Shown here piece by piece: positions 1-23,282 of a stretch of DNA of 23,282 nt. The position numbers and the translations under genes were made by a program. The notes below the pieces were generated by a model. It worked only from the letters and a program-made list of their open reading frames with translations. It did no database searches and had not been told where the DNA came from. Origin of the DNA: a virus (Duplodnaviria; Heunggongvirae; Uroviricota; Caudoviricetes). The stretch is from IMG/VR virus record IMGVR_UViG_2859799533_000007; one strand, written 5' to 3'. Each line of letters begins with the position of its first letter. Within the stretch, counting starts at the first letter, position 1.

Positions 1-336
1 GTGTTGCCCGAAAACTGGTGGCAACATCCAGCTGCATTAGGTGCAACTGACAGTGATATCGAAATCATCAAACGTCAGTGGGGTGCGTTTTACGGTACGG
101 ATCTGGAGTTGCAACTGCGCCGCCGAGGTATCGATACAATAGTGTTATGTGGGATCTCGACCAATATCGGTGTTGAATCCACCGCCCGCAATGCCTGGGA
201 ACTTGGCTTTAATCTGGTGATTGCCGAAGACGCCTGTAGTGCCGCCAGCGCCGAGCAACACAATAACAGCATTAATCATATCTACCCGCGCATCGCCCGT
301 GTGCGTAGCGTGGAAGAGATCCTTCACGCGTTATGA
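1..336 (+). CDS. yecD: Isochorismatase-family hydrolase, 3' portion (5' end lies outside the window)
   Basis: ORF runs from the window edge to a stop at 334-336. The translation (…[36 protein letters not shown]…) is typical of the cysteine-hydrolase/isochorismatase fold and matches my recollection of E. coli YecD. Symbol is from memory, not a search. Confidence 0.7.
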
Positions 337-440
337 TTTACATCGGTCTACCGCAATGGTCGCATCCTAAATGGGTGCGGTTGGGGGTGATGCTGCCAAC
401 TTACTGATTTAGTGTATGATGGTGTTTTTGAGGTGCTCCA

Positions 441-716
441 GTGGCTTCTGTTTCTATCAGCTGTCCCTCCTGTTCAGCTACTGACGGGGTGGTGCGTAAC
501 GGCAAAAGCACTGCCGGACATCAGCGCTATCTCTGCTCTCACTGCCGTAAAACATGGCAACTGCAGTTCACTTACACCGCTTCTCAACCCGGTACGCACC
601 AGAAAATTATTGATATGGCCATGAATGGCGTTGGATGCCGGGCAACTGCACGCATTATGGGCGTTAGCCTCAACACGATTTTACGTCACTTAAAAAACTC
701 AGGCCGCAGTCGGTAA
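441..716 (+). CDS. insA: IS1 InsA (transposition inhibitor / DNA-binding protein)
   Basis: 91-aa [46 protein letters not shown]…, the canonical IS1 InsA with its zinc-finger-like CxxC motifs. Confidence 0.93.
690..698 (+). promoter_or_regulatory. IS1 programmed -1 frameshift motif (TTAAAAAAC) for the InsAB' fusion
   Basis: A6C run located at the insA/insB overlap, as in IS1. Confidence 0.75.
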
Positions 717-760
717 CCTCGCGCATACAGCCGGGCAGTGACGTCATCGTCTGCGCGGAA

Positions 761-1138
761 ATGGACGAACAGTGGGGATACGTCGGGGCTAAATCGCGCC
801 AGCGCTGGCTGTTTTACGCGTATGACAGGCTCCGGAAGACGGTTGTTGCGCACGTATTCGGTGAACGCACTATGGCGACGCTGGGGCGTCTTATGAGCTT
901 GCTGTCACCCTTTGACGTGGTGATATGGATGACGGATGGCTGGCCACTGTATGAATCCCGCCTGAAGGGAAAGCTGCACGTAATCAGCAAGCGATATACG
1001 CAGCGAATTGAGCGGCATAACCTGAATCTGAGGCAGCACCTGGCACGGCTGGGACGGAAGTCGCTGTCGTTCTCAAAATCGGTGGAGCTGCATGACAAAG
1101 TCATCGGGCATTATCTGAACATAAAACACTATCAATAA
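761..1138 (+). CDS. insB: IS1 InsB (transposase catalytic part; made as InsAB' by frameshifting)
   Basis: ORF …[51 protein letters not shown]… The first in-frame Met is at 761, but the insB frame is open upstream to the A6C site. Confidence 0.9.
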
Positions 1139-1153
1139 GTTGGAGTCATTACC

Positions 1154-3000
1154 GCATAATTGCCAATCTCAACGTAAATATCATATGTATCGCCGGATGT
1201 GTTGATCCAGGCGAAATTCGTTAATCCGACGGCTGTACGCTTCCACAAAGCCCCGGTAATTCCTTTGGGGTTTCCATTGCCTGCTCGTAGAACCAGTTCT
1301 GAAATGCCTGCCTGATGTGGGGAACCGACGTTGTAACCAGCGCCACCAATCAATGCGATGTAAACGATGGAACTCGCTTGTGGCATGGTAACCGTAGCCA
1401 GTTTGAACCACCCAGCCCCGCCAGAGAAAGACATCGTTACTGAATTTAAAGTACCAATATCTTTCGGCGTTAATGTTATATCCGCAGTCAATGCTTTTCC
1501 GTTAACTTTTCGGTTAGATGGCACCCTGCTATTCGCATTGTCATTGGCTGCTTTAACTGCTTTTGGCGTTGCGGCCAGCGATTCACTGGTGCTATCAACA
1601 GCACTGCTAAGTTTCACAACACCTTTAGTTGTAAGGCTTGCGTCTTCCATCGCAACTGCACCGGCAATCTCTTCAGCACGATCAGCAGCAGCTTCCGCAC
1701 GGGTCGCAGCGGATTCAGCAGTAGTTTTGCTCTGAGATGCTGCCGTCGCACTGCCTGCCGCCTCTGTTGCCTTCGTGGATGCCGTCGTGGCGCTGCTCTT
1801 CGCTGCTGACGCTTGTCTGGTCGCCTCATCTTTTGAAGCAGACGCCGATGATGCCGATGACGCCGCCGAACTGGCGGACGATGCGGCAGCCGTTTTTGAG
1901 GATTCTGCGCTGGTTTCCGACGCTTTCGCGTTCGTTTCGGATGTCTTCGCTGCGGAAGCAGACCTCGCTGCTGCGCTGGCCTGTTCAGTGGCTTCGCCAG
2001 CCTTCGTTGTGGCTGTTGAAGCAGACGATGCGGAGCTTTCTGCCGATTTTCCGGCGGCGGTGGCACTGGCTGAGGCCTGCCCGGCACTTGTTGACGCTGC
2101 ACTGGCAGACGACGCAGCCGCTGTTTTTGAGCCTGCCGCAGCTGAGGCACTCTGTTCCGCTGCCGTTTCAGAAGACCTGGCGTTTGTCTCAGACGTTTTT
2201 GCCGCCTTCGCAGAATTTGCTGCCGCCGTTGCCGAGGAAGCTGCGCTGCTGGCGCTCGAGGCTGCGTTCGTTTCTGATGATTTTGCCGCCTCTTTTGAAG
2301 CCGACGCATCCCGTGCTGAAGTGGCTGCTTCTGACGCTTTCGTGGTCGCGGTGGATGCAGAAGTGGCTGCTGATTGTTGTGACGCTGCCGCATTCGTTTC
2401 TGACGTTTTCGCCGCACCGGCACTGGTAGCCGCCGCGCTTTTTGAGGACTCTGCAGCGGCAGCACTTTTTAATGCTTCAGTGGCCTTTGTTGATGCCGTT
2501 CCTGCGCTGGAAGACGCTGACTGAGCCGACGACGCGGCCTGTCCGGCTGACGTGCTGGCGGCACGTGCTGAGGCTGCAGCATCGGTTGCATGAGTTGCCG
2601 CCTCGCTGGCTGATTTTTTCGCGGCTGCCGTATTCTGTGCAACCGCGGAGGCGTTACGTGACACCTCTTCCACCATCTGCTCAAAGCGGCGCAGTGCCTC
2701 CGGTCGGACATCATCCTCCGTCATGGCACCGAGAAAATCATTCAGCGTACCTGGTCTGGAACCTTCATAGACGGTAATGGTCCCGGCATGTGAAGGCGGA
2801 AAACCTTCAACCAGCAGGGTGACGCTGTACTGACCATGCTCAACATCCATGCTGTAACGTCCGGCTTCATCCGGATTTTCAGAGGCCACCGTGTTCACCA
2901 CCACCGTGCTGCTGGTTCGTCTGGCCTTCAGCACAATGGTGCAGTTCTGTACTGGTTTTCCTGTGCCATCTTTAAGCACGCCAGAAATTTTTACTGTCAT
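1154..3000 (-). pseudogene. stf: Side tail fibre gene (lambda Stf-like), 3' end removed by IS1
   Basis: N-terminus MTVKISGVLKDGTGKPVQNCTIVLKARR… closely resembles lambda Stf. The ORF runs into IS1 at 1153 and its last ~6 codons and stop (1132-1134) are IS1 sequence. Confidence 0.85.
1668..2643 (-). repeat. Ala/Ser/Thr-rich low-complexity coding repeats inside stf
   Basis: Reiterated motifs such as AAKTSETNA… and SASSAS… in the translation; they create long spurious ORFs in other frames and on the opposite strand. Confidence 0.7.
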
Positions 3001-3010
3001 ACTTTTCCAC

Positions 3011-3046
3011 CAATAAAAAAAGCCCGCAGCAGTGACGCCACGGGCT
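3011..3046 (-). terminator. Candidate intrinsic terminator between lom and stf
   Basis: On the minus strand AGCCCG…CGGGCU stem (6 bp, 14-nt loop) followed by a U7 tract (plus-strand A-run 3015-3021). Confidence 0.45.
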
Positions 3047-3151
3047 TCAGGACAGTGTAACTTTACGTTTCCTCAAACGCAGTTCACCCCATAAAGTGGA
3101 TGAACCTGCGTATCATAACAATATTTACAGAAGATAAATCGGCGTCTGTTG

Positions 3152-3751
3152 TCAGAAACGGTATCCGATACCAACAATAAATGCATCCGTTCGCCAGTCG
3201 CCACTACCGGAACCTTCATAAGCAAGGTCAACGGCCACGGATTCGGTCGGGTTAAACTGCACGCCAGCCCCCCACGCCAGAGAGGTATTGCTGTGGCGAC
3301 CGTCATCACTTCCGGTCAGCACGTCGTGCGTTTTCCCCTTGTTGTCAGTTACGCGGAGATAATCCCCGGAGAAAGTCGACACACGGCTGTAAGCCACACC
3401 CGCCATCGCATACGCGCTGAACCATTCATTCACGCGTACAGACGGCCCCGCCATCACGCTGAACCAGCGGTTACGCACGGAATCTTCATGCCAGCGGGTA
3501 TCGCTGTAGCGCGTTTTTTGCTCATCCTCAGCATTGGCATAACTGAAGGACGTAATCAGCCCCAGCGCGTCCGTAAACTCATAACGGTATTTCACGTTAA
3601 TCCCGTTCAGATCATCACTACCGGGAACGTTCGTCGAGGCATGGAGATACCCCGCGCTCAGCGTGGACTGATGTTCTGCTGCACTCGCTGGCGTAGCAGC
3701 GGCGACCTGCCAGACTACTGCGGACAAAATAACAGCACATAATTTACGCAT
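3152..3751 (-). CDS. lom: Lom-like outer membrane beta-barrel protein (Ail/Lom/PagC family); a lambda moron
   Basis: 199-aa ORF with a signal peptide (MRKLCAVILSAVVWQVAAATPASA), alternating beta-strand pattern and C-terminal …IVGIGYRF; same position as lom in lambda, between J and stf. Confidence 0.88.
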   Translation of the reverse strand: MRKLCAVILSAVVWQVAAATPASAAEHQSTLSAGYLHASTNVPGSDDLNGINVKYRYEFTDALGLITSFSYANAEDEQKTRYSDTRWHEDSVRNRWFSVMAGPSVRVNEWFSAYAMAGVAYSRVSTFSGDYLRVTDNKGKTHDVLTGSDDGRHSNTSLAWGAGVQFNPTESVAVDLAYEGSGSGDWRTDAFIVGIGYRF

Positions 3752-3775
3752 AATTACCTCTCGCTTTTCTGCAAT

Positions 3776-3799
3776 AAAAAAGGCGCCATTTCTGGCGCC
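3776..3799 (-). terminator. Intrinsic terminator after J
   Basis: Minus strand GGCGCCA-GAAA-UGGCGCC (7-bp GC stem, 4-nt loop) followed by U6. Confidence 0.65.
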
Positions 3800-3818
3800 C
3801 GTATCTGGGTTATAAAAT

Positions 3819-6800
3819 TCAGCTAATCGTGATGCCTGCAGTGGCTTTCTTCATCACCACAACCAGCAAATCGCTGATACTTGCTGTGGGATACCAGTTA
3901 TTTACCAGCCATGCTGACACCGAAAACTCCAGTGTCATGTGACCGTGACCGGCAGGCATATCAATAACACCACTGTAAATCAGCGTATTATCCAGCGCGG
4001 TACGGTTATAAATTTCAGCACCGTTTTTCCGCACTATCAGACGGCATGAGGAGTAAATATCAGTATGCTCTTTCTCATGTTTAGCGCCGCTGAATGCCAC
4101 CGCCGGAATAACAATCTGCCGGTCAAACGGCTGATCGTCATAAACCCTGACGGTAATGGTTCCTGATGGCCACCGCTCTGGTGCACGGGAGTCCCGGGGG
4201 AAAGCTTTGCCCACTGTTTTAACGAGATCGCCTTCAATCTGGTTCGCGGACAATTTTCCCAGAACCCGACAGTTCTCGTTAATAGTGACGTTGTTGAGCG
4301 TCCCGGAGTTCGCATTCACGTTACCGCTGATATCGGCATTTTTCGCCGTCAGCCGCCCGTCCGGTGTCAGGGAAAATGCCGGAGGATTACCGCCGCTGGT
4401 AATGGTGGGAGCCGTCAGATATTTCAGGAACACTTCATTCATAAATATCTGATCGCCCTGACCAACAAACATCGGCTTTGTGTTGCCATTCGCAGGATTA
4501 ATCATCGCAATCCTGTCTGCCGCCAGCAGCACCTGACTCTGCATTCCTGCTGGCGTATTCTCAATACCGGCACCGATACCCGCAATATAAAGGCGTCCGT
4601 CCTGCATCTGCTGCAGTTTCACGGCCCACATGCTGTTCAGGTTATTATTTGTATCAACCTGAACTTTCTGTATCTGCTGGATTGCCGCACTCTGATTTTC
4701 CAGTTTTTTATTGACGGTCTGCGTGATTTCATTGCTGACATTCGTAATGGACGTCCTGATTTCAGCCAGGTCCGGCGCAAGCTGACCGTTATCAATCTGC
4801 GTCCACAGCTCCTGGGCCAGATGTGTTTTCCCGATTTCTCCTTTGAAAAAATCCAGGTAACCTTCCACATCATCGCTCGCCCGACCGACAGCCTCCACGA
4901 ATGCCGATTTGCCAACAGTATTCACACTGCGGATATAAAAATAATAATCATGGCCCGGTTTGATATTGATACTGGCAGCTATCCAGTACAGCGCCGAGCC
5001 AAGATAGCGGGCTGCGGTTTCAACCTGCCTGATATCCGCAATCCGCTTTTCCGAGAACCAGAACTCAAACTGTACCGTCGGGTCATAAACGGCAAGATGT
5101 GGCGTTGCGGTTATCTGAAAATAGCCCGGCGTCAGCTCAATCCGCGACGGTGCTGCCGGTGCGGCAATCCGGAAGGTGGTGGTGGCCGGTTCGCCCTGCT
5201 GGCCATAACTGTTAATTGCCCTGACTGTCAGGGTGTATTCCCCGAGCGGCAGACCACTGAAACGATGCTCTGTATCCGCAGTGATAGCGGTGGTCACCAG
5301 ACGGCTGTCTTCTCCGCTTCCGCTGGTCAGTCGCAGACTGAAGCGCACCCCCTTCACCACCCGCGGCGTGTCCCATTTCGCCTGTGCCAGATACTGGCCG
5401 TCAGCTGCGCTCACCTCCACCGTCAGGTGCTGCACTGCCGGTGGGATGACGCTGTTCAGGGAGCCTGACTGCGGCTCAAAGCGGGCACCGTTATCCACGA
5501 TGGCTTCTTTTTCCGGTACGTGCTGCACCGCCGTGATGGCAAAGGTGCCGTCCGTGTTTTCCCGGACGGAGACACAGCGGAACAGGCGACGGCGCAGTGA
5601 CGGCAGGGAGAGTCCCCACACCCCGTATGTCTCCACACCATCAGGCAGGGTACTGACCTGTATCCGGTCCGGCGCGGGGTGTGCGGTGATGTCCACACTC
5701 ACCGGCTTACCGCTGCCGTTAATCAGGTTCACCGCCGATGTACCTGTCTCCGGCAGGGTAACCTCACGGTCCAGCGTCAGGGTGCGGGTGGCAGCATCAA
5801 TGGACAGGACACGTCCGCCGGTCAGGGTCCCGGCATAGTCATTATCACAGATTTCAATAATGTCACCGGGTGTGTGCCGCAGCCCCTGAGACCCGAGCGT
5901 GAAGTCCACCGTCTGCGTTTCCAGCAGTTCGGTCTTTATCACCCACAGTCCGGCACGGTGGGCCTGACCGCGGCTGGTACAGCCGAACGCGTCCATCTTC
6001 AGCAGATTGCGCCCGTAGCGCAGTATGGCTTCCGGGTCTTCCACCAGTTCCGTGGAGGTCTGCCAGCCGTTCTGCGGGTCGGTGTAATTCACCTCCACCG
6101 CCGTGTGCCGGTCCTTCAGGGCACTGAAGCTGTAGCGGAACCCCACGCCGTTATCATCCACCACCACATCGCTGTTGGTGTACGGCCACACCACATCCGA
6201 CAGGCGGTCCTGAACAAACGTCAGCATCTGGCCGTTCCATACCGGCATACAGCGCATCGCCGAGCAGAAATCACTGAGAACATCCCACGCCTTACGCTGT
6301 TGTGCCAGGTACGCATTGAAGGTCATCCGCGGCTCGGTGCCCCCGAAGCCATCCGGCACCATCTGGTCGCAGTACTGCCCGATGGCATACAGCGCCCACT
6401 TGTCCACATCCGCCGCCCCCAGACGTTTTCCCATGCCGTAGCGCGGGTGAGTCAGCATGTCCCACAGACACCAGGCCGGATTGTTGCTGTATGCCGGTTT
6501 CAGACTGCCGTCCCAGATACCACTGTACGTGCGTTTTTCCGGGTCATAGTTTGACGGCACCTGGATGATGCGACCGCGGATATGGTAGTTCACCGTCATC
6601 TGCTGGCCGCCGAACTGCTCCGCATCCACCTGCAGCCCCACAATGGCCGTGTTCGGGTAGCACTGTTTCACATCGATGATTTCGGTGTATGACGACCACA
6701 GCGTCTTATTCTGCAGCTGGTCCGTGGTGCTGTCCGCCGTCTCCCTGACCATCCGGATGTTAAAGGGCCGGGGAGGCAGATTATCCAGAATCACCGAGGC

Positions 6801-7292
6801 CAGGAACTGTGAGGTGGTCTTGCCGTTAATGGTGACGTCCTTTTCCGTCACCCAGCGGCCATTACGCTGTAACTGAATCAGAATCCGGACAGAGGAAGGA
6901 TTACGGTCGCCCTTTGACGTGGTCTGCACCAGTGACTGCACCCCGAAGGTAACCCGCAGGCGGTCAATGTTCGCGGACGTAATGGTGCGCGTCACCGGTT
7001 TTGCCTTCGTCACTTCCACGCCCAGTCCGGTTTCAGCTCCGGAGGACTCAAAGCCTTCCGGTGGTGTCTGCTCCTGCTCCCCGGCGCGCCAGACCGCCGT
7101 CACACCGTGTATCACGGGATTGCCGTCCGTGTCCGTCAGTGGGGTTTTGTTCACCAGAATACTCTGCAGTCCCTTCACCGGACCTTCTATCGGTCCCTCA
7201 CCAATCGCATCAATCACACTCATCATCTGCGTGGATTTGAGATTATCCTTCGCCTCACGAGGCGTGTGTGCCTTACCGCCACCTTTTCCCAT
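3819..7292 (-). CDS. J: Tail tip / host specificity protein J (central tail fibre)
   Basis: Long similarity to lambda J from [22 protein letters not shown]… onward. Start placed at the ATG at 7292, preceded by GGGGAAGG; the ORF-track extension to 7505 is a non-coding upstream read-through. About 1157 aa. Confidence 0.9.
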
Positions 7293-7392
7293 ACAGCCTT
7301 CCCCTGAATAAATTAACCGCCACTTGCCATTCCGTACAGAAGTCGGATATCCTTCGCCTGAAAAGCATGAAACACATTTCTGCCATGCTAAA

Positions 7393-7428
7393 GAAAACCC
7401 CGGTATCAGCAGATACCGGGGTTTTCTT
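7393..7428. terminator. Perfect 14-bp-stem hairpin flanked by A- and T-runs (bidirectional terminator-like)
   Basis: AAAGAAAACCCCGGTATC-AGCA-GATACCGGGGTTTTCTTT, located in the enlarged I-J intergenic region. Confidence 0.7.
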
Positions 7429-7496
7429 TCATGCCCACCGATAATCCTGTTGGTTAAAACCGGTAATGGCATAAAAATTCTGAATATCTTCACATT

Positions 7497-7524
7497 TTCA
7501 CACACTGACTGTGGCGCTTATAAT
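7497..7524 (+). promoter_or_regulatory. Sigma70-like promoter (TTCACA, 16-bp spacer, TATAAT), antisense to the tail operon
   Basis: -35 at 7497-7502 (5/6 to TTGACA) and a perfect -10 at 7519-7524, in an AT-rich intergenic insert. Confidence 0.5.
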
Positions 7525-7530
7525 TTCGCT

Positions 7531-7628
7531 GCGTTAGTGTTTTTTTGCCCGAGTAACAAAAACAACTCCTTCACATTGATCTTCATTTGTCTGTCCCCGC
7601 AGCTCCGCGATCACTGCGGGATTTTTTT
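7531..7628 (+). ncRNA. Candidate ~100-nt small RNA (promoter to terminator, no convincing ORF)
   Basis: Bounded by the promoter at 7497-7524 and a plus-strand terminator (stem CCCGCAG/CTGCGGG at 7596-7620, then T7 at 7622-7628). No ATG-initiated ORF inside. Prediction only. Confidence 0.35.
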
Positions 7629-7633
7629 ATGTT

Positions 7634-8305
7634 TTATCCCTGTCGCCCGATAACCACGACCTTTCCGCCCCCGCCTTCATCACGGGTGCTGATGTCCTGG
7701 GATATACGGCGGGAGCCAACCAGCATTTCCCCGTAAGGCACCGGCATCGGGTTCCCCTGGGCAATCATGTTATCCAGCGAGGAAAAGTACGTGTTCTGTC
7801 TGCCGTTATCCGTTGCGCGGTAATCCGGTGTTTTTGCCTTCGGGGCCAGCATCTGGGCCACACCGCCCAGAATCATGCTGGCTCCAAGTGAAAACAGCAT
7901 CGTGGTGGCAGAAAAACCACCGGCTGCCAGGGCTGAACCCCATAACGCCATTGATGCCCCGGCAGTGAAGAAAGAGCCCACGATGGCTGCCGCCCCCAAC
8001 ACAATCTGCAGTCCACCCTTTCCGGCCCCGGCCAGTCGCGGCACAATGTGGATGACCGTTCCCTCACCCAGCTGTTCGTGAAGACGGGCATACACCGCCT
8101 CCGGTGCCGTGTCATCACCGGCAATACGTATCTGGTACCAGCCTTCGTTCATCTGACGGCGAAAGCCCGGCATCTGCATCGACAGGGCGCGAATGGCTTC
8201 CGCTGCCGTGTTCACATACAGGCTGAGGCGGCGGCCAAATCGTTGCAAATCCCCGTGAAGGCAGATGGTGAAGCAGCTCACCGTTGCCGCAGTAAATGGT
8301 GGCAT
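7634..8305 (-). CDS. I: Tail assembly protein I
   Basis: …CLHGDLQRFGRRLSLYVNTAAEAIRALSMQMPGF…IHIVPRLAGAGKGG… resembles lambda I. Start chosen at the Met at 8305 (223 aa, as in lambda); the longer track ORF is read-through of the K overlap. Confidence 0.85.
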   Translation of the reverse strand: MPPFTAATVSCFTICLHGDLQRFGRRLSLYVNTAAEAIRALSMQMPGFRRQMNEGWYQIRIAGDDTAPEAVYARLHEQLGEGTVIHIVPRLAGAGKGGLQIVLGAAAIVGSFFTAGASMALWGSALAAGGFSATTMLFSLGASMILGGVAQMLAPKAKTPDYRATDNGRQNTYFSSLDNMIAQGNPMPVPYGEMLVGSRRISQDISTRDEGGGGKVVVIGRQG

Positions 8306-8864
8306 GGTTCGGTACCGAAGCACCAAAGCAGCACAGCAGAATATCGCCCGGCTGTGCAGAGGACAGGGGCACCCGGTAAAAGCCGGTGACCGCCATATTG
8401 TCCAGGTACAGGTTCTGGCCGTTGCGCCACCAGTCATCCTCGCGATGAAAATCCGGCATATCAATTCCCGCCAGATGGTATGCATCCCGGAACAGCGTGT
8501 AACAGTCCGTCACCCCGTGCTCAAAGCGCCGTCCTGTCAGATGTGGCACACAGCGGAATTTATGAATTTCCCCCCGGCAGACCAGCCACCAGGGCAGTGC
8601 GCTTTTTATCTGCAGCCGCCGGTCAGCCTCGCTCAGCCAGGGCAGCTCACCGGGATGACTGTGGACCAGTGCCACAATCTCCCCCTGCATCTCTGCCCGC
8701 AGCCAGTCTTCCGGTGCGATACGAAAATACGCCTCCGGCTCTGCAGAAATATTCACACAAGGGATATACCGCTCCCCCTCCGGCGTGCTTATCACGAAGC
8801 CGCACGACTCCGCAGGCGCACACCGCCGGGCATGCGCCAGAATCGCTGATTCAGTCTGTGTCAT
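8115..8864 (-). CDS. K: Tail assembly protein K (MPN/JAB plus NlpC/P60 domains)
   Basis: MTQTESAILAHARRCAPAESCGFV…HSHPGELPWLSEADRR…GVTDCYTLFRDAYHLAGI… Start ATG at 8864. The C-terminal ~45 residues look non-native and overlap I by ~190 bp, so the 3' end is uncertain. Confidence 0.8.
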   Translation of the reverse strand: MTQTESAILAHARRCAPAESCGFVISTPEGERYIPCVNISAEPEAYFRIAPEDWLRAEMQGEIVALVHSHPGELPWLSEADRRLQIKSALPWWLVCRGEIHKFRCVPHLTGRRFEHGVTDCYTLFRDAYHLAGIDMPDFHREDDWWRNGQNLYLDNMAVTGFYRVPLSSAQPGDILLCCFGASVPNHATIYCGNGELLHHLPSRGFATIWPPPQPVCEHGSGSHSRPVDADAGLSPSDERRLVPDTYCR

Positions 8865-8874
8865 AAACCGGGAT

Positions 8875-9573
8875 TTACTGCGAAAGTTTATTAATGGAAA
8901 GGAAACCGCCAAAATTGCCGACATTCCTGCGCAGTTCACACCCGCGCATGCACTTGCTGCATCTGTCCTTACGGATATCCGTGGTGGGTTTATCGAACTC
9001 ATCCGCCACAGCCCCGCCCGTGTAACCACACTCATCAGAGCGGTAGGTCCACATACAGGTGTTCGCCAGCATGATACGACCGGGAAACAGCGCCCCGTCC
9101 GTCTCGGTCGGTGTAGCCAGCACAAACGAGGCCGTCATGGCTGTCAGCTGCGACATCTGCTCCACCACCCAGCGGTCACTCAGCTCCTGCTCCGGGTCCG
9201 CCTCCGGATTGCCCGCAACGAAATTCACCGCATCCAGAAAACGGGCATACACCCGGCGGCGGACCACCGTGGCCCCCACCAGACTCTGCAGGTCTTCCGC
9301 CATCCCGGTGACCAGACCGAACAGATTGGACACCGTCAGCGACGGTCTGGCACTGCTGCCCCGGCCGTTCATCTCAAAGCCGCTGCCGTCAATCGGGTAT
9401 GCCTCATACTTACGCCCCTGCCAGGTGACCGGCTCCCCTTTTTCATTCAGCTCATTACAGAAAAAATACCGCTCACCACCCTGCACCGTCAGGTCGATTT
9501 CCCAGAGTACCACCCGCGGTGACTGCTCTGACTTAACCGACTCGTTCAGCCTTTCTTCGCGAATATCCTGCAT
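8875..9573 (-). CDS. L: Minor tail protein L
   Basis: 232-aa ORF MQDIREERLNESVKSEQSPRVVLWEIDLT… with the C-terminal Cys cluster typical of lambda L; start overlaps the M stop (ATGA). Confidence 0.9.
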   Translation of the reverse strand: MQDIREERLNESVKSEQSPRVVLWEIDLTVQGGERYFFCNELNEKGEPVTWQGRKYEAYPIDGSGFEMNGRGSSARPSLTVSNLFGLVTGMAEDLQSLVGATVVRRRVYARFLDAVNFVAGNPEADPEQELSDRWVVEQMSQLTAMTASFVLATPTETDGALFPGRIMLANTCMWTYRSDECGYTGGAVADEFDKPTTDIRKDRCSKCMRGCELRRNVGNFGGFLSINKLSQ

Positions 9574-9902
9574 CAGTTCACCACCTGCTTAAACTCCGCG
9601 CTGAACTCAACGCGCAACATCCCGACCCGCGCAGACCACCCGGCACAGGTCACCTTTATCTGCCGGTATGCATAAGGCGGTGTCCACAGAAACGCCTTCC
9701 AGCCACCGTGCTCTGCCAGGAATTCCTCCAGATGCCGGGCTTCCTCCCGGGTCACGGAAAGCGTCACCCGGTATGTTTTCAGGTCAGCACTCAGCCCTGC
9801 CGCCATACGCTGCGAATAGCCGTCACCAAAACGCACTTCACGCACCGATGGCCGCGAGTTCACCTCCATATCCGGTTTCACTTTCCAGCGAAAGGTTTTC
9901 AT
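9573..9902 (-). CDS. M: Minor tail protein M
   Basis: 109-aa ORF MKTFRWKVKPDMEVNSRPSVREVRFGDGYSQR…, same length and position as lambda M. Confidence 0.9.
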   Translation of the reverse strand: MKTFRWKVKPDMEVNSRPSVREVRFGDGYSQRMAAGLSADLKTYRVTLSVTREEARHLEEFLAEHGGWKAFLWTPPYAYRQIKVTCAGWSARVGMLRVEFSAEFKQVVN

Positions 9903-12509
9903 CGCCCGCTCCCCGATAACAGACCGCCATCACGCAACTGCAGCCGGAGCTCATCCTGCGCACCTTTACGGGCCATCTCATACACCGCTTTCATCAGCTG
10001 CGGCCCTGCCTGCCCGTTGGGGCCGTCGTTCTGAATCACCACGTGATTGTTCTGATTAAAATTAATGCCTTCGGCCCGCCGCATCTGCGCCGGACTTCCG
10101 GCACCGCCGACATAACCACCTTCCGCATACCCGCGCATCAGACGATACAGGTTGCCGACACCAATCCGGCTGGTCGCCTCCTTCGTGAAGACAAACTCCC
10201 CGCGATGGACAATCCCCGCAGGCTCATATTTGCCGCCCGTCCCGTAAATCCTCCGGTCGCGAAATGGAAGTTCGCCGCCGCAGCCTGAATGGCCGTCCCC
10301 GTGGAAGCGGATGCGCCACCACCGAAAGCACCACCAATGGCGCTGCCGATACGCCCGACAATCCCCACCATCGCCTGCTTCAGAAAAATCTCTGTCAGCA
10401 TGGAGAGCACGGAACGGGTGAAACCACGCCAGTTCTGTTCGCTGCCGGTCAGCATCGCCGCCATATTCTGTGCAATACCGTCAAAGGTCTGCGTGGCCAC
10501 ACTTTTTACCTGCGAAAAACTGTCCGTCGCACTTTCCGCCCACTCGCCCCAGCCGGACTTCATCCCGGCCATCCAGCTTCCACGAAGCTGCTCCTCCGCA
10601 GACCAGGTGTTCTTCAGTGCAGATGTGGCCTTCGCCAGCGCAGCCGGATTATCACCGTACACCTCACGAAGGCGCTGCTCTTCCGACTCCCGCTGCGCCT
10701 GACGGTCGGTGAGTCCGCGGGCTTTTGCGCTGATTGCCGCCTGCTTCGCGCTCTGCTGCTGTTCAAACCGCGCCGCCTGCTGTGCCAGCTCATTCAGCCG
10801 CTTCTGGTGTTCAATCTTGTCTCCCAGCTCAGCCAGCTGGCGTTTGTACTCCAGCGTCTCTTTCTCATGAGCCAGCAGGGATTTTTCCTGCCAGGATAAC
10901 TGCCGTTTCGTGGCAGCCTCTTTCAGGACCGCATACTGACTTTCCGCCTTCCATAAATCACGGCGCTGCCGGCTGATTTTCTCATTCGCACCGCTGTGTT
11001 TTTCCAGCGTCCTGAGCTCAGCTTCAAGGGCAAGCAGAGCCTCTCTTGCCTGCTCCTCTTCCCTCTCCCCGGCAGAGCGCGTTTTCGGTGATGTATGCTT
11101 TTTACCTGTCAGCTCTTCAGCCAGACGGCTGACGGCTTCCTGCTGCCCAAGACCTTTGCTGACGCCTGTTGCACGCGAGCGGTTGATGTACCCCATTTCC
11201 CCCTGGCGTATACGCGCATCCCGTTCCGCAATGGATTTTCTCAGCGCCAGTTCATCGCGTTTTGTTTTCTCAATAAATACGCGGTTCTCTTCTGCCAGTT
11301 CACCAAACAACGCACCAACGCCGGGCACATTCTTTGTCGTTTCCCAGGCTGACTGAATAAATTCAGCCAGTGCCAGATCCCCTGCACAAGCAGCAGCTTC
11401 ACCTGTTCAACGGTTCCGGCCACCACGTCAGTGATCAGACTGAGTGCCCCCAGTGTATGATCACCTATCCATGCCCATGCGTCAGAAGTCCAGGTTTTAA
11501 CATCGTCCCAGATTTTTTCCACCGGCGTGGCCGCTTTATCAAGTTGCTCCAGACGTGCATTCATGACATCCGCAAACAGGGACATCGCCTCCGTCACCGC
11601 AGCCTGTTTACCTTTCGTGCGCTCAAGCTCATCAATATGGCGTAACTGGGAAACGCTCAGGAAGTTATACTGCTGATTCAGGGAGGCCAGCGCCTTCACC
11701 GGATCTGCTGCAATCCCTTCAAAGGCTTTTTCCACCTTCCCGGCATCGTCCCCCACCGTCTGCAGCCATCTCTGAGAGGTTTCCCCCATGATCCGTAGCT
11801 GCCCGGCGGTATATTTCCCGCTTTCTGCCAGACGGGCCAGATTTTCTGCCGCCTGTCTGATACCACCACCGGCTTCATCGCTGATCACCCCGGCCATTTT
11901 CCACAATTCTGCCGTTGTGGTGGCAGCCGCCCCTCCGGTCAGGATCAGTGAACGCAATAAGGCCCGGTCAGCCTGCTCTGCCTGCCAGGCGGCGGCAGCA
12001 AGCACGGCCAGTACGGCAACCCCGCCACCTGCCGCCACACGGACCACCGACATAAATCGTCCCAGCTCACCGGCATTCCGGGCATTTTCAGCCAGTGCAT
12101 TTGCCGTATCTGACAGCGACTCCTCTGATGATTCAGAGGCATCCCTGATCCCGAGAAGTTCCTCCTTCAGCAGGGTAAGCAGGCTGAGCGGTTCACCGAA
12201 TGAATCGCTGATCTGCCCCCCCTGCTGCAGCATGATAAGGAAGGGATTCTGACCACCGGCAAGCTGAGTGACAATATCCGTGAACTGTGCGGGCAGTGTG
12301 CGCATGGCAGCCTTATACTGTCCGACTCATATCCCGGCTTTTTGTGCAGCCAGCGCCTGTCGGCTCAGCCCCTGTTCAACAGTACTGGCGGTTTTTCTGG
12401 CATCCGCCTCCAGACTGGAAAAATGACGGCGTACCCGGGCCATCTGTTCATCAAACCGGGCCGCATCCAGACTCAAATCAATAACCAGATCACCCGCTGG
12501 CTGGGACAT
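9899..12509 (-). pseudogene. H: Tail tape measure protein H, disrupted by one in-frame stop and two frameshifts
   Basis: N-terminus MSQPAGDLVIDLSLDAARFDEQMARVRRHF… is H-like, then an in-frame TGA at 12327-12329. Reading continues in the same frame to ~11390, shifts frame near the C4 run 11389-11392, and shifts again at the C3 run 10241-10243 before the H-like C-terminus …QNNHVVIQNDGPNGQAGPQLMKAVYEMARKG…. Confidence 0.85.
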
Positions 12510-12903
12510 ATCTCACACCTCCGGAAATCCCCGCTGAAGCCATCATTAATGCAACATCATCCTCGCTGACATCCACCACATTCGCAGAAGGTGAAATATC
12601 GCGCCCTCCGTCCCCTCCGAACCGGACGCCTCCGGCAACTCCTGTCGCTTTCTGCATCAGCATTTCTTCCTCGTCCGGCATCTCCGTCTGCTCTTCCTCA
12701 CACGCTGGAGCAAGCAGACTGAAATCCGCCGGATGCATATCCGGATCGCCAAAAAACAGGCTGAGTACGGCGTACATCAGCCCGGAAAAATGAGCGTCCA
12801 GTTGGGTATCCTGAAAATAATGCGTGCAGTAAAAACGTCGCCAGTCGGCATATTCGGTGGATGTCATCCCGGCAAGCATGGCGCGCCAGTCGGGTCTCCC
12901 CAT
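12490..12903 (-). CDS. T: Tail assembly chaperone T domain (normally made only as the G-T frameshift fusion)
   Basis: …RPDWRAMLAGMTSTEYADWRRFY… followed by an acidic stretch and GGVRF/GGVRYV motifs; its stop lies 17 nt after the H start codon, a lambda-like overlap. The frame is open upstream to 12927. Confidence 0.75.
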   Translation of the reverse strand: MGRPDWRAMLAGMTSTEYADWRRFYCTHYFQDTQLDAHFSGLMYAVLSLFFGDPDMHPADFSLLAPACEEEQTEMPDEEEMLMQKATGVAGGVRFGGDGGRDISPSANVVDVSEDDVALMMASAGISGGVRYVPASG

Positions 12904-13321
12904 CTCTCGCGCCAGTTTCAGGACAAGTTACCGGCTCAGTCGCTTCTGCTTTCCCGGTTTGTTCAGGATCGGCATCGTGCCGGTTATCCAGCATACCTGA
13001 AAGATAAAGCACCCGGTTCGTTGCCTGATTCAGTGCATCAGCAGGCCATCCCAGCATCACTTCACGGCGGATCTGCTGCATCTCTGTCTCCGGAGAGGCC
13101 AGAGTGCCTTTGAGGGAATGGGTATGCCATAGCGACATCGCCACAAGCAGGGATGCCGTTTCCAGATATCGCTGGTTAATGTGCACGACATCATGCTTCG
13201 TTGTCTCCTGTTGTTCTGCGTCTGAAACAAACTTTATATAATCAAACCGCTGCAGCGCAGACAATTCGGAAAGCGTGACAGACACACCGTTATATTCAAA
13301 TTGTTCTGTTTTCAGAAACAT
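12698..13321 (-). CDS. G: Tail assembly chaperone G; N-terminal ~125 aa G-like, 3' extension probably spurious
   Basis: MFLKTEQFEYNGVSVTLSELSALQR… resembles lambda G. The ORF is 207 aa (lambda G is 140 aa); the part beyond the GGGAAAG heptamer is Arg/Cys-rich and looks like an out-of-frame reading of the T region. Confidence 0.6.
   Translation of the reverse strand: MFLKTEQFEYNGVSVTLSELSALQRFDYIKFVSDAEQQETTKHDVVHINQRYLETASLLVAMSLWHTHSLKGTLASPETEMQQIRREVMLGWPADALNQATNRVLYLSGMLDNRHDADPEQTGKAEATEPVTCPETGARDGETRLARHACRDDIHRICRLATFLLHALFSGYPTGRSFFRADVRRTQPVFWRSGYASGGFQSACSSV
12949..12955 (-). promoter_or_regulatory. GGGAAAG slippery heptamer (putative G-T -1 frameshift site)
   Basis: Plus-strand CTTTCCC at 12949-12955. 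In the frame that reads it as G GGA AAG a TAA follows 7 codons later (12928-12930), lambda-like, but that frame is neither the N-terminal G frame nor a -1 partner of the T frame. Confidence 0.5.
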
Positions 13322-13334
13322 GTATTACCTCCGT

Positions 13335-14087
13335 TTACCCTGCAGCGCCCGCTTCAGTAACGGTGACTTCAGCCACTGCGGCGAACTGACCATTTCCGCT
13401 CACCACAAGGATCTGCACCTTACCTGTCGCCACGCCGTTTACCGTAATTGTCATATCTTTCACACTAATGGTGGCTTTCGACGGATCGGCGGAAACCGCT
13501 CTGAACGTCTTGTCGGTTGCACTTTCCGGCTCAAAAGAAACCGTCAGGGTGGTTGTTTTCCCTTTTGCCACCGTACCGGATGTCGGCGTCACCTTAATCG
13601 CACTGACCGGCGTAATTTTGCTGCGTTCTTCCGCTACAGAAGGTTTACCCACGTTAGTGACTTTCACCGTGCGGGTGATCACTTCTTTCGCCGTCACGGC
13701 CTTACCGATACTGCTGACCCAGCCACGAAACACATCCACCGTGCCATTCGGAAAACGGATTTTATAGGCCCGGACATCGCCGCTTTCAAACCAGCCTATA
13801 AGCCCTTTCTGGCCTTCCTCTCCCGGTTTCCAGGCCAGCGTAAAACTGGTATCACCTGCAGATTTCTGCCCCTGCCCGGTCGCGTTCCAGTCCGCGTCTT
13901 CATCATCCAGGTAGTTATCATCGTAGGATTCTGCCGTCATCTCGCCCGGCGTCAGATCCTTCACCTTAGCCAGTCGCTGCCAGTCATCGTCTGACAACGG
14001 GTTTGCATAAGCATCACCCTTGCCGTTGTAAACCCACAGAGTGGTACCGGCACCTTTTACCGGCTCAAGGGGATTTGGTGTTGCCAT
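13335..14087 (-). CDS. V: Major tail protein V with C-terminal Ig-like domain
   Basis: 250-aa [67 protein letters not shown]…; Thr/Val-rich C-terminal beta domain. Confidence 0.9.
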
Positions 14088-14094
14088 ATCGTCC

Positions 14095-14490
14095 TCACAT
14101 CTCGTATGTAATGGAATAAGTCAGATCTGCAGAACTCCATAACGCCATATCGTCATCACGACGATACTCATAGCCCTGCGTAACCATCGTGGTAATCAGT
14201 CCTGCCAGTGCCGGGATCGCAGTCATCGCCGGGTAAATCCGGCTTTCCATCCACTGATCAAGCTCTGAATCCGGTACCTGTGCCGGTAAAAACACCTCAA
14301 TATGCAGCGTGGCCCGCCAGGTATCTGCATCCAGCTCTTCACCGGTATACTCTGCATCCGTCAGATAAACCGCGATCGCAGGAAAATCCTCTTCGTCAAA
14401 AACAACGGGGCGACCATCAAACAGCGTCGCCCCGTGTTCATGCTGCTCGAGTGCATCCAGCACTGCGGCACGAATGTCAGTGTGTTTCAT
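14095..14490 (-). CDS. U: Tail terminator protein U
   Basis: 131-aa ORF in the lambda U position and size. Confidence 0.85.
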
Positions 14491-15062
14491 CGTTTTATCG
14501 CAATCCTCAGTTGTTGTTTCAGCGCGTATGCCAGTTCTTTAGGCAGGCGTTCACGCCGGATACGGTCAACATTCTCATCAAATGCCTGTTTCAGTGGGGC
14601 CGCCATCGGGATTTTCACCACCTGAATGGGAAGGCGATTACGCTTTTTCCTTCCCTTGTCGTCATTGCCCTCCTCATATCTGGCCTGGGGAAGACGTTGC
14701 ATAACATGCCAGCGCCCATTATTTAATCGCTGGATAAATGCCCGCTGATAACGATGCTGACCGGCTTTGAGTATGCTGTTCGGACGACGTCCCAGCATTC
14801 TGATCCCCAACTTAATCACAGGGAGATCACCGCGGTTAACGATAATTCTGGCATTCGGATTTCTGACCGTCGCCCGTTTCAGTCTGGACCGTTCCTTTAC
14901 CAGTTTCCGTCTCACCCTGGTTTCCCGGGCAACCTGTGACGAAGACTGATTAATCGCCGTTGTGGCCACGCGGTTAATCGTCATTGCTGAAGCCGCCGGA
15001 ATGGCGTTTTTACGAACCCGGCTCAGATTATCAATCGCCTGATCAAGCCCTTTTATCGCCAT
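14487..15062 (-). CDS. Z: Tail completion protein Z
   Basis: 191-aa ORF in the lambda Z position and size; stop overlaps the U start. Confidence 0.85.
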   Translation of the reverse strand: MAIKGLDQAIDNLSRVRKNAIPAASAMTINRVATTAINQSSSQVARETRVRRKLVKERSRLKRATVRNPNARIIVNRGDLPVIKLGIRMLGRRPNSILKAGQHRYQRAFIQRLNNGRWHVMQRLPQARYEEGNDDKGRKKRNRLPIQVVKIPMAAPLKQAFDENVDRIRRERLPKELAYALKQQLRIAIKR

Positions 15063-15077
15063 AATTTCACCCTGCGT

Positions 15078-15431
15078 TTATCGTCGCCGGTTAACAGCGG
15101 GTGGTTGCCCACGGTTGAGCCAGAGATAACAGCTTCCCCCGTCATCCGGAGAAATACGATCCACCCAGAACATCTCGCCGTTAATGGTCAGCGTGTCACC
15201 ACGCCGCACGGCACGCACCGTATCCGTCCGCACAAATAATGACGGGCTGCTTCCTTCAATACGGACCCCGCCACCGGCAAAACCCAGCGACTCCGGATCG
15301 TCAAAAACCCCCTGAACTTCGCTTCCACGCTGTGCTCCCGAGGTGAACTGCGCACAGAGCCCCATCACTTCAACAATCGTGCTGTCCACCCCGGCAAGGG
15401 CAGCATCAAAGGCATTCTGAAAATCACGCAT
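15078..15431 (-). CDS. FII: Head-tail joining protein FII
   Basis: 117-aa ORF, same length and position as lambda FII. Confidence 0.85.
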   Translation of the reverse strand: MRDFQNAFDAALAGVDSTIVEVMGLCAQFTSGAQRGSEVQGVFDDPESLGFAGGGVRIEGSSPSLFVRTDTVRAVRRGDTLTINGEMFWVDRISPDDGGSCYLWLNRGQPPAVNRRR

Positions 15432-19595: not shown

Positions 19596-19783
19596 CGCCT
19601 TTATGAAAAGACAGGAAAAAATAAAATTTAAAAACAGTACATTACGAATGCTCAGACCTATCGTTTAAAGGAGTCGCAATACACACTGCAATACACGATT
19701 ATTTATAAGATGAGCGGCATCCGTCATAAAGCTGGTGGATGCTTTTTCTATGCATATATGCACAGTTTTAGTGGGCGTTAATG

Positions 19784-19807
19784 TCGATATAGGGATCCCC
19801 ATATCGA
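19784..19807. repeat. 24-bp near-perfect palindrome TCGATATAGGGATCCCCATATCGA (operator-like)
   Basis: Differs from its reverse complement at one symmetric position pair only. Confidence 0.6.
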
Positions 19808-20025
19808 GATTGGATACCAGGCTTTTTTAATCAGGCTGGTGGGCTTTACCTGTTTTGTATGAGTGGTCATCATGACCATGTCATAACAAAAACCCCATAT
19901 TCGTGGTTTTTCTGTGTCGGGCTATTCTGTCGTTGCTGTGCTGATTTGGCTGGTGGGCTGAATCATCATTACGGCGATGCAGCTATGTAGACGTTCCGGC
20001 CTCCTCAAATTGAGGATTGTGGAAG

Positions 20026-20187
20026 AATCAATGGGTTAGTCTTACTTTCCCGACATCCCCCAATGGGGGGTTTCGAAACAATCAATAGCTTAGGCTTACT
20101 TCCCCGATTTCCTGCATTGCAGGTTTTCGAAATAATCAATGGGTTAGGCCATCGTGCAATTTTGCACTTTGCCAGCCAGCGCAATGT
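20026..20187. repeat. Tandem array of three 54-bp direct repeats, each with an internal GC-rich hairpin
   Basis: Units begin AATCAAT at 20026, 20080 and 20134. Units 1 and 2 share ~40 of 54 positions, with the hairpin arms changed in a compensatory way (CCCCC-AAT-GGGGG versus CCTGCA-T-TGCAGG); unit 3 diverges after position 15. Confidence 0.7.
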
Positions 20188-20397
20188 CGCGTTATCAGTC
20201 CTCAGATGTGAGGGATGTAGCCAGCTTTTCCCCCAGTGGGGGATATCCAGCACCGACGGCTTAACTGTGCGTGCCAGCACAAGGTAGCCTTGAACTACTT
20301 ACTGCATCCCATCTTACAGGCCGTGCCTTCCTGCTTAACTTTTTGCAATGCAACAAGTCAGCCAGCGCAATTTTGCGTTATCGGGAATATCAGCAAG

Positions 20398-20679
20398 TTA
20401 CCGCCGCAATCGTTCCGGCTTCTTCCACTGGTAAGTATTTTTCGCGCTCTCCCTCCGTTGTTGAGAACGGCGACGATATGCCAGCAACTCAAGGACTCTT
20501 GTTCGTATGTTGCGCATATCCACGCCGTTAAGCTCAATACCGTCACGGCGCATCACCTCAGCCACTACACGCACATAATTATCTGCGGTCACGCTGTCCG
20601 GCTGCGTGGCCTGTTCGTCATGCTGCTTGCTGATTCCACAAGCACGGCGGATTAATCGCAGTATTTCGGATTCAGTCAT
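20398..20679 (-). CDS. Hypothetical small basic protein (93 aa)
   Basis: ATG-initiated ORF with coherent charged composition (MTESEILRLIRRACGISKQHDEQ…); weak RBS; I do not recognise a homologue. Confidence 0.4.
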   Translation of the reverse strand: MTESEILRLIRRACGISKQHDEQATQPDSVTADNYVRVVAEVMRRDGIELNGVDMRNIRTRVLELLAYRRRSQQRRESAKNTYQWKKPERLRR

Positions 20680-20803
20680 AGCGTACTACGTTACTTATCT
20701 TTATTCGGCTGCAACTTATCCGGTACGTTTCCGGCAGTTTCCATCAGATAATCGGACAGCTGAGGTGTACTGGCAATAGCGGACACTACCATTTGTTCTT
20801 TTT

Positions 20804-21622
20804 TTAAGCAGCCATCTGATGATATTTTTCCCTGAAGGCTGCCGGGGAGATATTCCCCAGACGAGAGTGACGACGCTGACGATTGTAGAAAATCTCAATG
20901 TATTCCCGTATTACTGAGATGGCTTCATCCCGGTTATTAAAACGATAGTGGCTCAGGCTCTCATTTTTCAGCGTTCCCCAGAAGCTTTCCATCGGAGCGT
21001 TGTCGTAACACTGACCTTTACGCGACATTGATGTTTTCAGACCAGACTGCTCCTGTATGACCCGGTAATCGTATGCGCAGTACTGTGAACCTCGATCAGA
21101 GTGGTGGATTAGCCCGGCAGGTGGGCGCTGGCTCCTGAGCGCCATAAACAGGGCTTTACCTGTCAGCTCTTTTGTCATGCGCTCTCCCATGGCGTAGCCG
21201 ACAATTTCGCACGTATAAACATCTTTGATGCCAGCGAGGTACAACCATCCCTCCTGTGTGGCAACATACGTCAGGTACGCCACCCAGACCTGATTTGGTG
21301 CTGTAGGAGCGAACGTCTGGTTCAGCAGATTTGGCGCAACTGGCAGATTGTGGTTCGGGTTCGTAGTCGCTCTGAACTTGCGTTTCTGCTTACAGCGTAG
21401 CCTTAGCTCCTTACGAAGACGTGCCAGTCGGTCACGACCAACGATGATGCCATTCTCTGCCAGCTCCGTCTGGAGCCGCCGGGTTCCATATGTTTCGCGA
21501 GTGCGGATATGTGCCACCTTAATCTCCAGTTTTAGCCGCTCATCACTTTGTTTTCTGTCTGAGGGTTCATGCTGTACCCAGTTGTAATAACCGCTCCTGG
21601 ATACACCAAATACCTGACACAT
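20804..21622 (-). CDS. IS3-family transposase OrfB (DDE domain)
   Basis: 272-aa ORF …HHSDRGSQYCAYDYRVIQEQSGLKTSMSRKGQCYDNAPMESFWGTLKNE…; the frame is open upstream toward the frameshift window. Confidence 0.9.
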   Translation of the reverse strand: MCQVFGVSRSGYYNWVQHEPSDRKQSDERLKLEIKVAHIRTRETYGTRRLQTELAENGIIVGRDRLARLRKELRLRCKQKRKFRATTNPNHNLPVAPNLLNQTFAPTAPNQVWVAYLTYVATQEGWLYLAGIKDVYTCEIVGYAMGERMTKELTGKALFMALRSQRPPAGLIHHSDRGSQYCAYDYRVIQEQSGLKTSMSRKGQCYDNAPMESFWGTLKNESLSHYRFNNRDEAISVIREYIEIFYNRQRRHSRLGNISPAAFREKYHQMAA

Positions 21623-21657
21623 CGCTTCAATGGGAAATTGTTGTCGCCATTGTTCGA

Positions 21658-21960
21658 TTAACGCGTATTTTTCAGCGACTCCTGTGCAAAATACGCTGTT
21701 GCTTTTTTTAATATATCTCGCTCAAGGCGAGCTTCATTTAACGCCTTACGCAGTTGCAGAATTTCAGATTCCAGTTCAGCCACCGTGCGGGAACCAGGAG
21801 TACCGAGCCCTTTTCTGGCGGCGGTAACCCATTGTCCTAAAGTGCCTTCAGGAAGGGATAATCGGGAAGCGCCTTCACTGATCGAAAGTTGATTTTCAAG
21901 AACCGTTCTGACAGCTTCGGCTTTGAACTCTTTAGAGTAACGTTGGTTTTTTCTGCTCAT
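21658..21960 (-). CDS. IS3-family transposase OrfA (helix-turn-helix plus leucine zipper)
   Basis: 100-aa ORF MSRKNQRYSKEFKAEAVRTVLENQLSISEGASRLSLPEGTLGQWV…; an A7G slippery run (plus-strand T7 at 21703-21709) sits near its 3' end. Confidence 0.9.
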   Translation of the reverse strand: MSRKNQRYSKEFKAEAVRTVLENQLSISEGASRLSLPEGTLGQWVTAARKGLGTPGSRTVAELESEILQLRKALNEARLERDILKKATAYFAQESLKNTR

Positions 21961-22115
21961 TATTAGCTCCTTCTGATGCCATTCTATTTCAGGAAGGAGT
22001 GTCCGTTAAACTCAGGCTACCTCAATCAGCGCCAGTCAGTCAGCCGGAGCAAAAACAGAAGCCCCACTCATTCCGGAACAACCTTCTTAATAACCCATTT
22101 CAACGAGAAAATCCT

Positions 22116-22385
22116 ATGTCAGAAATAAAATCGCTGGTCACTGCTGAGGCAGTGAAGGAAGTCCTGCGCTCTGAAGAAGTCCGGAGCGCACTGAAACAGC
22201 AACTTCGGCAGAACCTTGAGGCGCGTCTTGATGCAGAAGTGGATTCAATTCTGGATGAACTGCTGGGCGCACCGACTGTTCCGGAGCCGGAAGGCATTGC
22301 GGATGACAGTGCTGTTTCAGATGGCGTCGGGTCTCAGCCTGACGGTAGTGAAGGGCCTCAGCCTGACGGCGAAATGATGATGTAA
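22116..22385 (+). CDS. Hypothetical acidic protein (89 aa) upstream of the holin
   Basis: ATG at 22116 within the longer track ORF; MSEIKSLVTAEAVKEVLRSEEVRSALKQQLRQNLEARLD… with an acidic C-terminus; weak RBS. Confidence 0.45.
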   Translation: MSEIKSLVTAEAVKEVLRSEEVRSALKQQLRQNLEARLDAEVDSILDELLGAPTVPEPEGIADDSAVSDGVGSQPDGSEGPQPDGEMMM

Positions 22386-22460
22386 CCATGCGCAGGGGGT
22401 GTCGGTGTGAGCTGATGCCCCACTTGTTGTTGTGAGCTTCCGGATTGCGGGAGACGGGGT

Positions 22461-22620
22461 ATGTACCAGATGGAAAAAATCACAACAGGTGTGTCATACA
22501 CCCGTCAGCGGTGGGAACGGGCTACTGGTTCCTGCAGTTGCTGGACAGGGTTTCCCCGTCTCAGTGGGCGGCAATAGGCGTACTGGGGAGTCTGCTGTTT
22601 GGGCTGCTGACATATCTGAC
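22461..22620 (+). pseudogene. Class II holin (phage 21 / Stx-phage S-type), frameshifted and cut by an IS element
   Basis: [14 protein letters not shown] in one frame continues as [39 protein letters not shown] in another; the shift is at the C3 run 22501-22503. The dual-start MYQM motif and transmembrane core are typical; the C-terminus is replaced by IS sequence from 22621. Confidence 0.75.

Positions 22621-23282
<662 letters not shown>

Follow-up and report, generated by a model that had tools for sequence, protein, structure and literature searches.

How did a complete IS1 element come to lie between the end of yecD and a truncated side tail fibre gene (stf) of a lambdoid prophage, with no target duplication at its ends? 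The arrangement is found near the start of the 23,282 nt stretch of DNA that was analysed here as a whole (the window). A first-pass annotation of this sequence had read it as an IS1-mediated adjacent deletion, which would have removed the distal tail fibre region, tfa and the prophage attachment junction. Our comparison with related genomes leads to a different answer. With an estimated probability of about 0.85, the window IS1 is a hybrid copy at the breakpoint of a chromosomal rearrangement, which arose by reciprocal exchange between two pre-existing IS1 copies. No DNA was lost at the window joint.

The window IS1 and its two flanks

The element (Table 1) has the length of about 768 bp and the imperfect terminal repeats of about 23 bp that characterise the IS1 family, and both the InsA and the IS1 DDE domains were detected in it by Pfam searches. 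IS1 generates target duplications of 9 bp, sometimes of 8 bp, and the examples in the present loci agree with this. The flanks of the window copy read ...GGGTGCGGTTGGG-IS1-GCATAATTGCCAATC..., with CGGTTGGG (designated x in the following) at the left end and GCATAATTG (designated y) at the right end; a direct repeat of 8-9 bp is absent from the two ends. This absence reflects the history of the window copy and not its membership of the IS1 family. The local description in the first-pass annotation was accurate on all these points, namely the exact position of the IS1 between the yecD flank and the cut stf, its distance of 49 bp from the yecD stop, the interruption of stf about 615 codons in and the lack of a repeat. 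Neither the yecD-IS1 nor the IS1-stf junction was present in any of 5,426 complete E. coli genomes, a result that directed attention to Shigella, and an exact protein look-up of the 622-aa chimeric Stf-IS1 open reading frame (ORF) gave no match.

Table 1. Positions of yecD/yecE, IS1 and prophage features in the window (nt).
Feature	Position	Strand	Remarks
yecD 3' fragment	1-336	+	111 codons, isochorismatase family; PF00857, E=2.4e-29; 96.6% identity to K-12 yecD-yecE
yecE nt 1-53	333-385	+	identical to K-12 yecE nt 1-53
CGGTTGGG (x)	378-385		yecE nt 46-53; left one of the two 8-bp repeats made by the ancestral IS1 insertion into yecE
IS1, complete	386-1153	+	768 bp; Pfam PF03811, PF12759, PF03400
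IRL of IS1	386-408		GGTGATGCTGCCAACTTACTGAT
insA of IS1	441-716	+	
insB' frame of IS1, open	668-1138		-1 frame relative to insA
A6C frameshift motif of IS1	692-698		AAAAAAC
IRR of IS1	1131-1153		GGTAATGACTCCAACTTATTGAT; imperfect, 18 of 23 positions match IRL
GCATAATTG (y)	1154-1162		one of the two 9-bp repeats made by the IS1 insertion into stf
stf 5' part	1154-3000	-	615 codons; PF08400, E=3.7e-70; prophage side tail fibre N-terminal domain
lom	3152-3751	-	Ail/Lom outer membrane protein; PF06316
J	3819-7292	-	tail tip, 1157 aa; same prophage as lom and the truncated stf

On the left side of the IS1, the yecD stop codon (334-336) overlaps the ATG of yecE (333-335), and the 49-bp gap (337-385) up to the element is yecE sequence. 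This agrees with the first-pass annotation, according to which yecE follows yecD directly in K-12. The window itself begins 16 bp into the yecD 3' fragment. An IS110-family element splits yecD just upstream of window position 1, so that the 5' part of the gene lies beyond the window; the corresponding transposase gene is found between the two yecD pieces in related loci (L006 13752-15431; L057 15293-16972). The same IS110 insertion is found in yecD of many genomes that bear the names S. flexneri, S. boydii and S. dysenteriae.

On the right side, the truncated stf is followed by lom and J, and beyond J the window continues with further genes of this lambdoid prophage, for its tail and head. The exact J protein of the window is on record only in two chromosomes, CP026866.1 and CP026867.1. 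The missing 3' part of stf is an ORF of 395 aa, in which collar, fibre-repeat and gp37_C domains were detected and which in relatives and at a second IS1 copy described below is followed by tfa. Removal of the IS1 and of one duplication copy from the stf of relatives restores an open frame of 1056 codons. Its PF08400 N-terminus, its placement after J and lom, and the 3' fibre part with the adjoining tfa (this 3' half lying outside the window) identify the gene as a lambda-type stf. In the protein collection, the 395-aa Stf 3' protein and a second one of 441 aa were filed in a 90% cluster with a terminase large subunit as representative; this co-clustering is apparently an artefact of the collection.

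IS1 insertions and resident prophages in related genomes

The same stf gene is interrupted by an IS1 in nine other assemblies, most of them named S. boydii (CP049281.1, CP026762.1 and seven more found via Tfa or BtsR). In these assemblies the IS1 does not differ from the window copy in its position in stf, to the nucleotide, or in its orientation, and it is flanked by a perfect 9-bp duplication, with GCATAATTG on both sides of the element (L005, L008, L025, L027, L028, L030, L032, L033, L036, L038). The prophage of CP049281.1 and CP026762.1 shows 99.5-99.6% identity to the window over 13.4 kb. In the relatives with this insertion the prophage is joined to K-12 sequence at nt 68 of mlrA (yehV), and the sequence runs on into yehU/btsS. 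Past the IS1 the order is stf 3' part, tfa, an acetyltransferase gene, dinI, another IS1 and mlrA nt 68; the dinI-adjacent IS1 carries a 9-bp duplication of its own, CCCTCCTGT. The window-type prophage therefore belongs in mlrA (yehV) rather than yecE, and a simple IS1 insertion interrupted its stf there. The first-pass annotation had assigned the truncated stf to a yecE prophage, and this part of its reading has to be given up.

A simple insertion was also found at the other side of the window joint. Contig L043 of assembly GCA_000815735.1, a draft in which the contig crosses repeats, has the order yecD, yecE 1-53, IS1, yecE 46-96 and prophage. This IS1 has CGGTTGGG on both sides, an 8-bp duplication that marks it as a simple insertion, and its sequence is identical to that of the window IS1. 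Another contig of the same assembly (L038) carries the interrupted stf with GCATAATTG on both sides of the IS1, adjoining mlrA'-yehU. Both parental insertions, x-IS1-x and y-IS1-y, are thus present together in one relative. GCA_000815735.1 also carries the clade-specific Stf allele of the yecE prophage, which was detected in 34 contigs in total.

The phage resident in yecE is a different one. Shigella genomes with the IS110-split yecD have a lambdoid prophage that is joined to the chromosome at yecE nt 96, and two of these genomes are 100% identical to window positions 1-386. In these yecE prophages dinI adjoins the junction; stf, lom and J are directed toward yecD. Compared with the window, their lom-J region has only 83-92% identity, and their stf shows no match to the window stf past the N-terminal domain. 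It follows from these two differences that the phage DNA in the window is not that of the yecE-resident phage. A phage junction at about nt 96 of yecE is likewise absent from the window, in which phage DNA is joined to yecE nt 53 through the IS1. Both yecE and yehV (mlrA) are documented integration sites of lambdoid/Stx phages (for yecE, see PMC8112680), and the first-pass annotation was correct in naming yecE as such a site. The relatives conform to this, with phage DNA joined at nt 96 of yecE and at nt 68 of mlrA and with dinI, tail fibre genes, lom and J toward the junction. Compared with the prophages that occupy these two sites, the window remnant is off its integration site and was moved beside yecD by the IS1 exchange.

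Between dinI and the tail fibre genes, the yecE prophages harbour genes for type III effectors as cargo. The effector gene is of the ipaH type with LRR/NEL domains in Shigella (L016, L018, L019, L021, L023), and nleC or nleG genes were found in yecE prophages of E. coli (L002, L014, EHEC).

The partner copy and the probable origin of the hybrid joints

A locus found via the exact Lom protein showed that window positions 1-13751 are 100% identical to CP026866.1, and a second one, found via J, extended this identity to positions 1-15292; the proteins of this chromosome and of its relatives bear Shigella boydii as source name. The window copy, here called IS1a, corresponds to CP026866.1 2024689-2025456. 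A second copy, IS1b, lies at 2089489-2090256, with 64,032 bp between the two, and they are in the same (direct) orientation and differ at no position. Read in the orientation of the element, the flanks of IS1b are ...CACTCGTCGCATAATTG-IS1-CGGTTGGGGATCACC..., so that the chromosome displays the pattern x-IS1a-y and y-IS1b-x. The right flank of IS1b begins with yecE nt 46 and runs to nt 96, where the phage junction follows; 320 of 321 nt at this yecE/prophage junction are identical to the unrearranged junction of a relative (L022). Upstream of IS1b lie the stf 3' part (the 395-aa ORF), tfa and dinI, and the exact Tfa of the mlrA-type prophage is encoded within CP026866.1 itself. The locus as a whole runs from the J-lom-stf-gp38-dinI end of the yecE prophage through the phage/yecE junction and yecE 96 to 46 into the IS1; the stf 3' part, tfa and dinI come next, and beyond another IS1 the sequence enters the start of yebB and then ruvA-ruvB. 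The analysis covered the surroundings of both copies apart from about 30 kb of the interval between them and the region left of ruvC.

The partner copy was recovered with CGGTTGGG as right flank and GCATAATTG as the other flank in three loci (L026, L041, L042). A second closed genome, CP026867.1, contains both hybrid joints as well, and the swapped half-duplications are found in both chromosomes. CP026866.1 and CP026867.1 differ in SNPs, indels and large-scale arrangement; in CP026867.1 the two IS1 copies are inverted and 52,753 bp apart, in contrast to the direct pair of CP026866.1. The matching duplication halves on the partner copy bear out the statement of the first-pass annotation that the window IS1 is not a simple insertion.

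These observations suggest the following history. In an ancestor of the S. boydii clade an IS1 would have inserted into yecE, 43 bp upstream of the point where the yecE prophage begins, and duplicated CGGTTGGG. A separate IS1 would have inserted at about codon 615 of stf in another lambdoid prophage, resident in mlrA (yehV), and duplicated GCATAATTG. The two identical copies would then have swapped their flanks, most likely by homologous recombination between inverted copies, resulting in an inversion. One product of this exchange would be the window joint, in which yecD and yecE 1-53 are connected through IS1 to stf 5', lom and J; the other would connect the stf 3' part, tfa and following sequence through IS1 to yecE 46-96 and then to the yecE-resident prophage. 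Later IS-mediated inversions would have altered the orientation and spacing of both joints. Since the original insertions had already interrupted the two genes, stf and yecE were inactivated earlier and not by the exchange.

The inverted pair of CP026867.1, 52,753 bp apart, is the expected product of a single inversion. The pair is direct in CP026866.1, so one inversion is not sufficient there and at least one further event is needed, which the proposed history predicts to be an inversion of the block carrying IS1a. A third IS1, the one next to dinI of the mlrA prophage, has exchanged its flanks too (L026 11705-12472; L035 7042-7809, CP026866.1; L037, CP026867.1). One half of its CCCTCCTGT duplication now abuts the yebB start/ruvA, and the other half has stayed with mlrA'-yehU, which an IS1 now connects with the cobU side, beside a truncated inverted IS1. 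A one-step cassette swap had also been considered. It predicted the joint yehU-mlrA'-IS1-yebB, which is absent, both closed genomes having yehU-mlrA' linked to the cobU side instead; with the failure of this prediction a multi-step history was accepted. We infer both the order and number of the inversions and the preference for RecA-type recombination over a transposase reaction. The identity of the IS1 copies makes the crossover point unmappable and leaves exchange by a recombinase and exchange by a transposase inseparable by sequence.

Among the other explanations, a transposase-driven exchange fares best, and even this we consider unlikely. A circle carrying the interrupted stf would have been fused into yecE by replicative transposition, yielding a cointegrate with a new 8-bp duplication, or a targeted reaction would have taken place between two IS1 copies. 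IS1 is able to form cointegrates and produces duplications of 8-9 bp, and the direct arrangement in CP026866.1, x-IS1-y and y-IS1-x separated by 64 kb, formally has the structure of a cointegrate. However, a clade relative has a simple IS1 at the same yecE target and in the same orientation while the rest of the region is unrearranged, which means that the target was occupied before the exchange. The inverted copies of CP026867.1 are also unlike the outcome of a cointegrate, and a non-replicating circle of 50-60 kb would have had to persist. The proposition that the exchange was due not to RecA but to an IS1 transposase reaction between the copies, or to fusion of an excised circle of about 50-60 kb with one IS1 in the manner of an IS26-like 'translocatable unit', appears slightly less likely again. 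If this proposition were true, IS1 would be an active driver of the translocation of large segments in Shigella boydii.

It is very improbable that the joints are an assembly artefact, in which the flanks of identical 768-bp IS1 copies were mis-joined and the true genome has two simple insertions. All IS1 copies concerned are indeed identical, a setting in which mis-joins arise, but both hybrid joints occur in two closed chromosomes that differ from each other (CP026866.1 and CP026867.1), and long reads, the usual basis of such closed genomes and assumed for these records, easily span 768 bp.

Least probable of all is the adjacent deletion, in which the IS1 in stf of a yecE prophage would have transposed intramolecularly into yecE and thereby eliminated the distal stf and tfa together with the att junction and that end of the prophage. 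In its favour, the window IS1 lacks a target duplication, yecE is a real prophage site at which the prophage of relatives has the same orientation, and the IRL end of the IS1 faces yecE as the model requires. Against it, the supposedly lost DNA is found in the same chromosome by a second IS1 with complementary half-duplications, the window prophage is of the mlrA type and not of the yecE type, and a simple yecE::IS1 at the same target already exists in a relative. In CP026866.1, the stf 3' end, tfa, yecE 46-96 with the att junction and the yecE prophage are all retained beside IS1b, 64 kb away from the window joint. An adjacent deletion by intramolecular replicative transposition also produces a single IS1 with a new flank and no target duplication, and this local likeness explains why a deletion had been proposed. 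It leaves no reciprocal product, however, whereas here both the reciprocal joint and the intervening DNA are kept. The first-pass annotation had named two findings that would speak against its reading, a target duplication at the window copy and a 49-bp segment that is not yecE; we looked at both, and the duplication is absent and the segment is yecE, but neither could have exposed the error about the deletion.

The reciprocal exchange between two IS1 copies places the window in a known class. Inversions in Shigella usually stem from recombination between IS copies. Inversions and translocations by IS1-IS1 recombination in Shigella likewise leave hybrid IS copies without their own duplication at the breakpoints, with the half-duplications on the partner copy. 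Shigella chromosomes contain 229-348 IS copies, of which IS1 is the most numerous (PMC7373316), and one study placed 103 of its 114 reconstructed inversions on Shigella branches (PMC8072062). The chromosome of the window is likewise rich in IS, with IS600 and an IS3-family element besides IS1 and the IS110-family element in yecD. We see no essential difference between these IS-mediated rearrangements and the present case, which joins yecE and mlrA/yehV, each the site of a prophage, and in which at least three IS1 copies near one another have exchanged flanks. The window joint is an ordinary member of this already known class, a routine rearrangement scar of Shigella, and the yecE-mlrA exchange leaves the general understanding unchanged. 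For S. boydii it provides a concrete case, resolved at the sequence level, of an exchange that links the prophage loci yecE and mlrA/yehV, in a group in which close closed genomes already differ by further inversions. Two cautions follow for the annotation of similar sequences. In IS-rich genomes, an IS without a target duplication marks a breakpoint of recombination more often than the scar of a deletion. The position of a prophage fragment beside a known attB, moreover, does not establish that the phage integrated at that site.

Prophage decay and other elements in the window

The prophage remnant in the window is heavily decayed, with an IS600, an IS3-family element, frameshifts and the IS1-cut stf. 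The tape measure gene (10138-12305) is split into two ORFs of 354 and 352 aa and is intact, with 870 aa, in CP026867.1; its split state is a further sign of this decay.

The portal gene is interrupted after position 19601, and the following 1.16 kb (19602-20760) is the right end of an element of about 11 kb. This element sits inside the lambdoid portal gene in several E. coli genomes and is cut by the IS600 in the window. It encodes an integrase, AlpA, a Bro-N protein, a D5-type primase, SSB, a capsid protein, a decoration protein, Nu1 and a 93-aa ORF, and by this gene content it looks like a phage satellite.

The IS600 is complete (20761-22024, 1264 bp) with an orfA of 100 aa and an orfB of 272 aa, and it interrupts the satellite-like remnant. 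Within the segment that follows (22025-23282) lies a phage lysis fragment of about 600 bp (DUF826, holin) in the orientation opposite to the late genes. The lysis fragment is bounded by the IS600 on one side and, on the other, by the IS3-family element (at 22.6 kb), which runs off the end of the window and is a candidate endpoint of the extra inversion that separates CP026866.1 from CP026867.1.

The satellite-like remnant also contains, at 20002-20147, three copies of a 38-nt direct repeat with an exact spacing of 54 bp. These repeats may form a protein-binding array near the end of the element.
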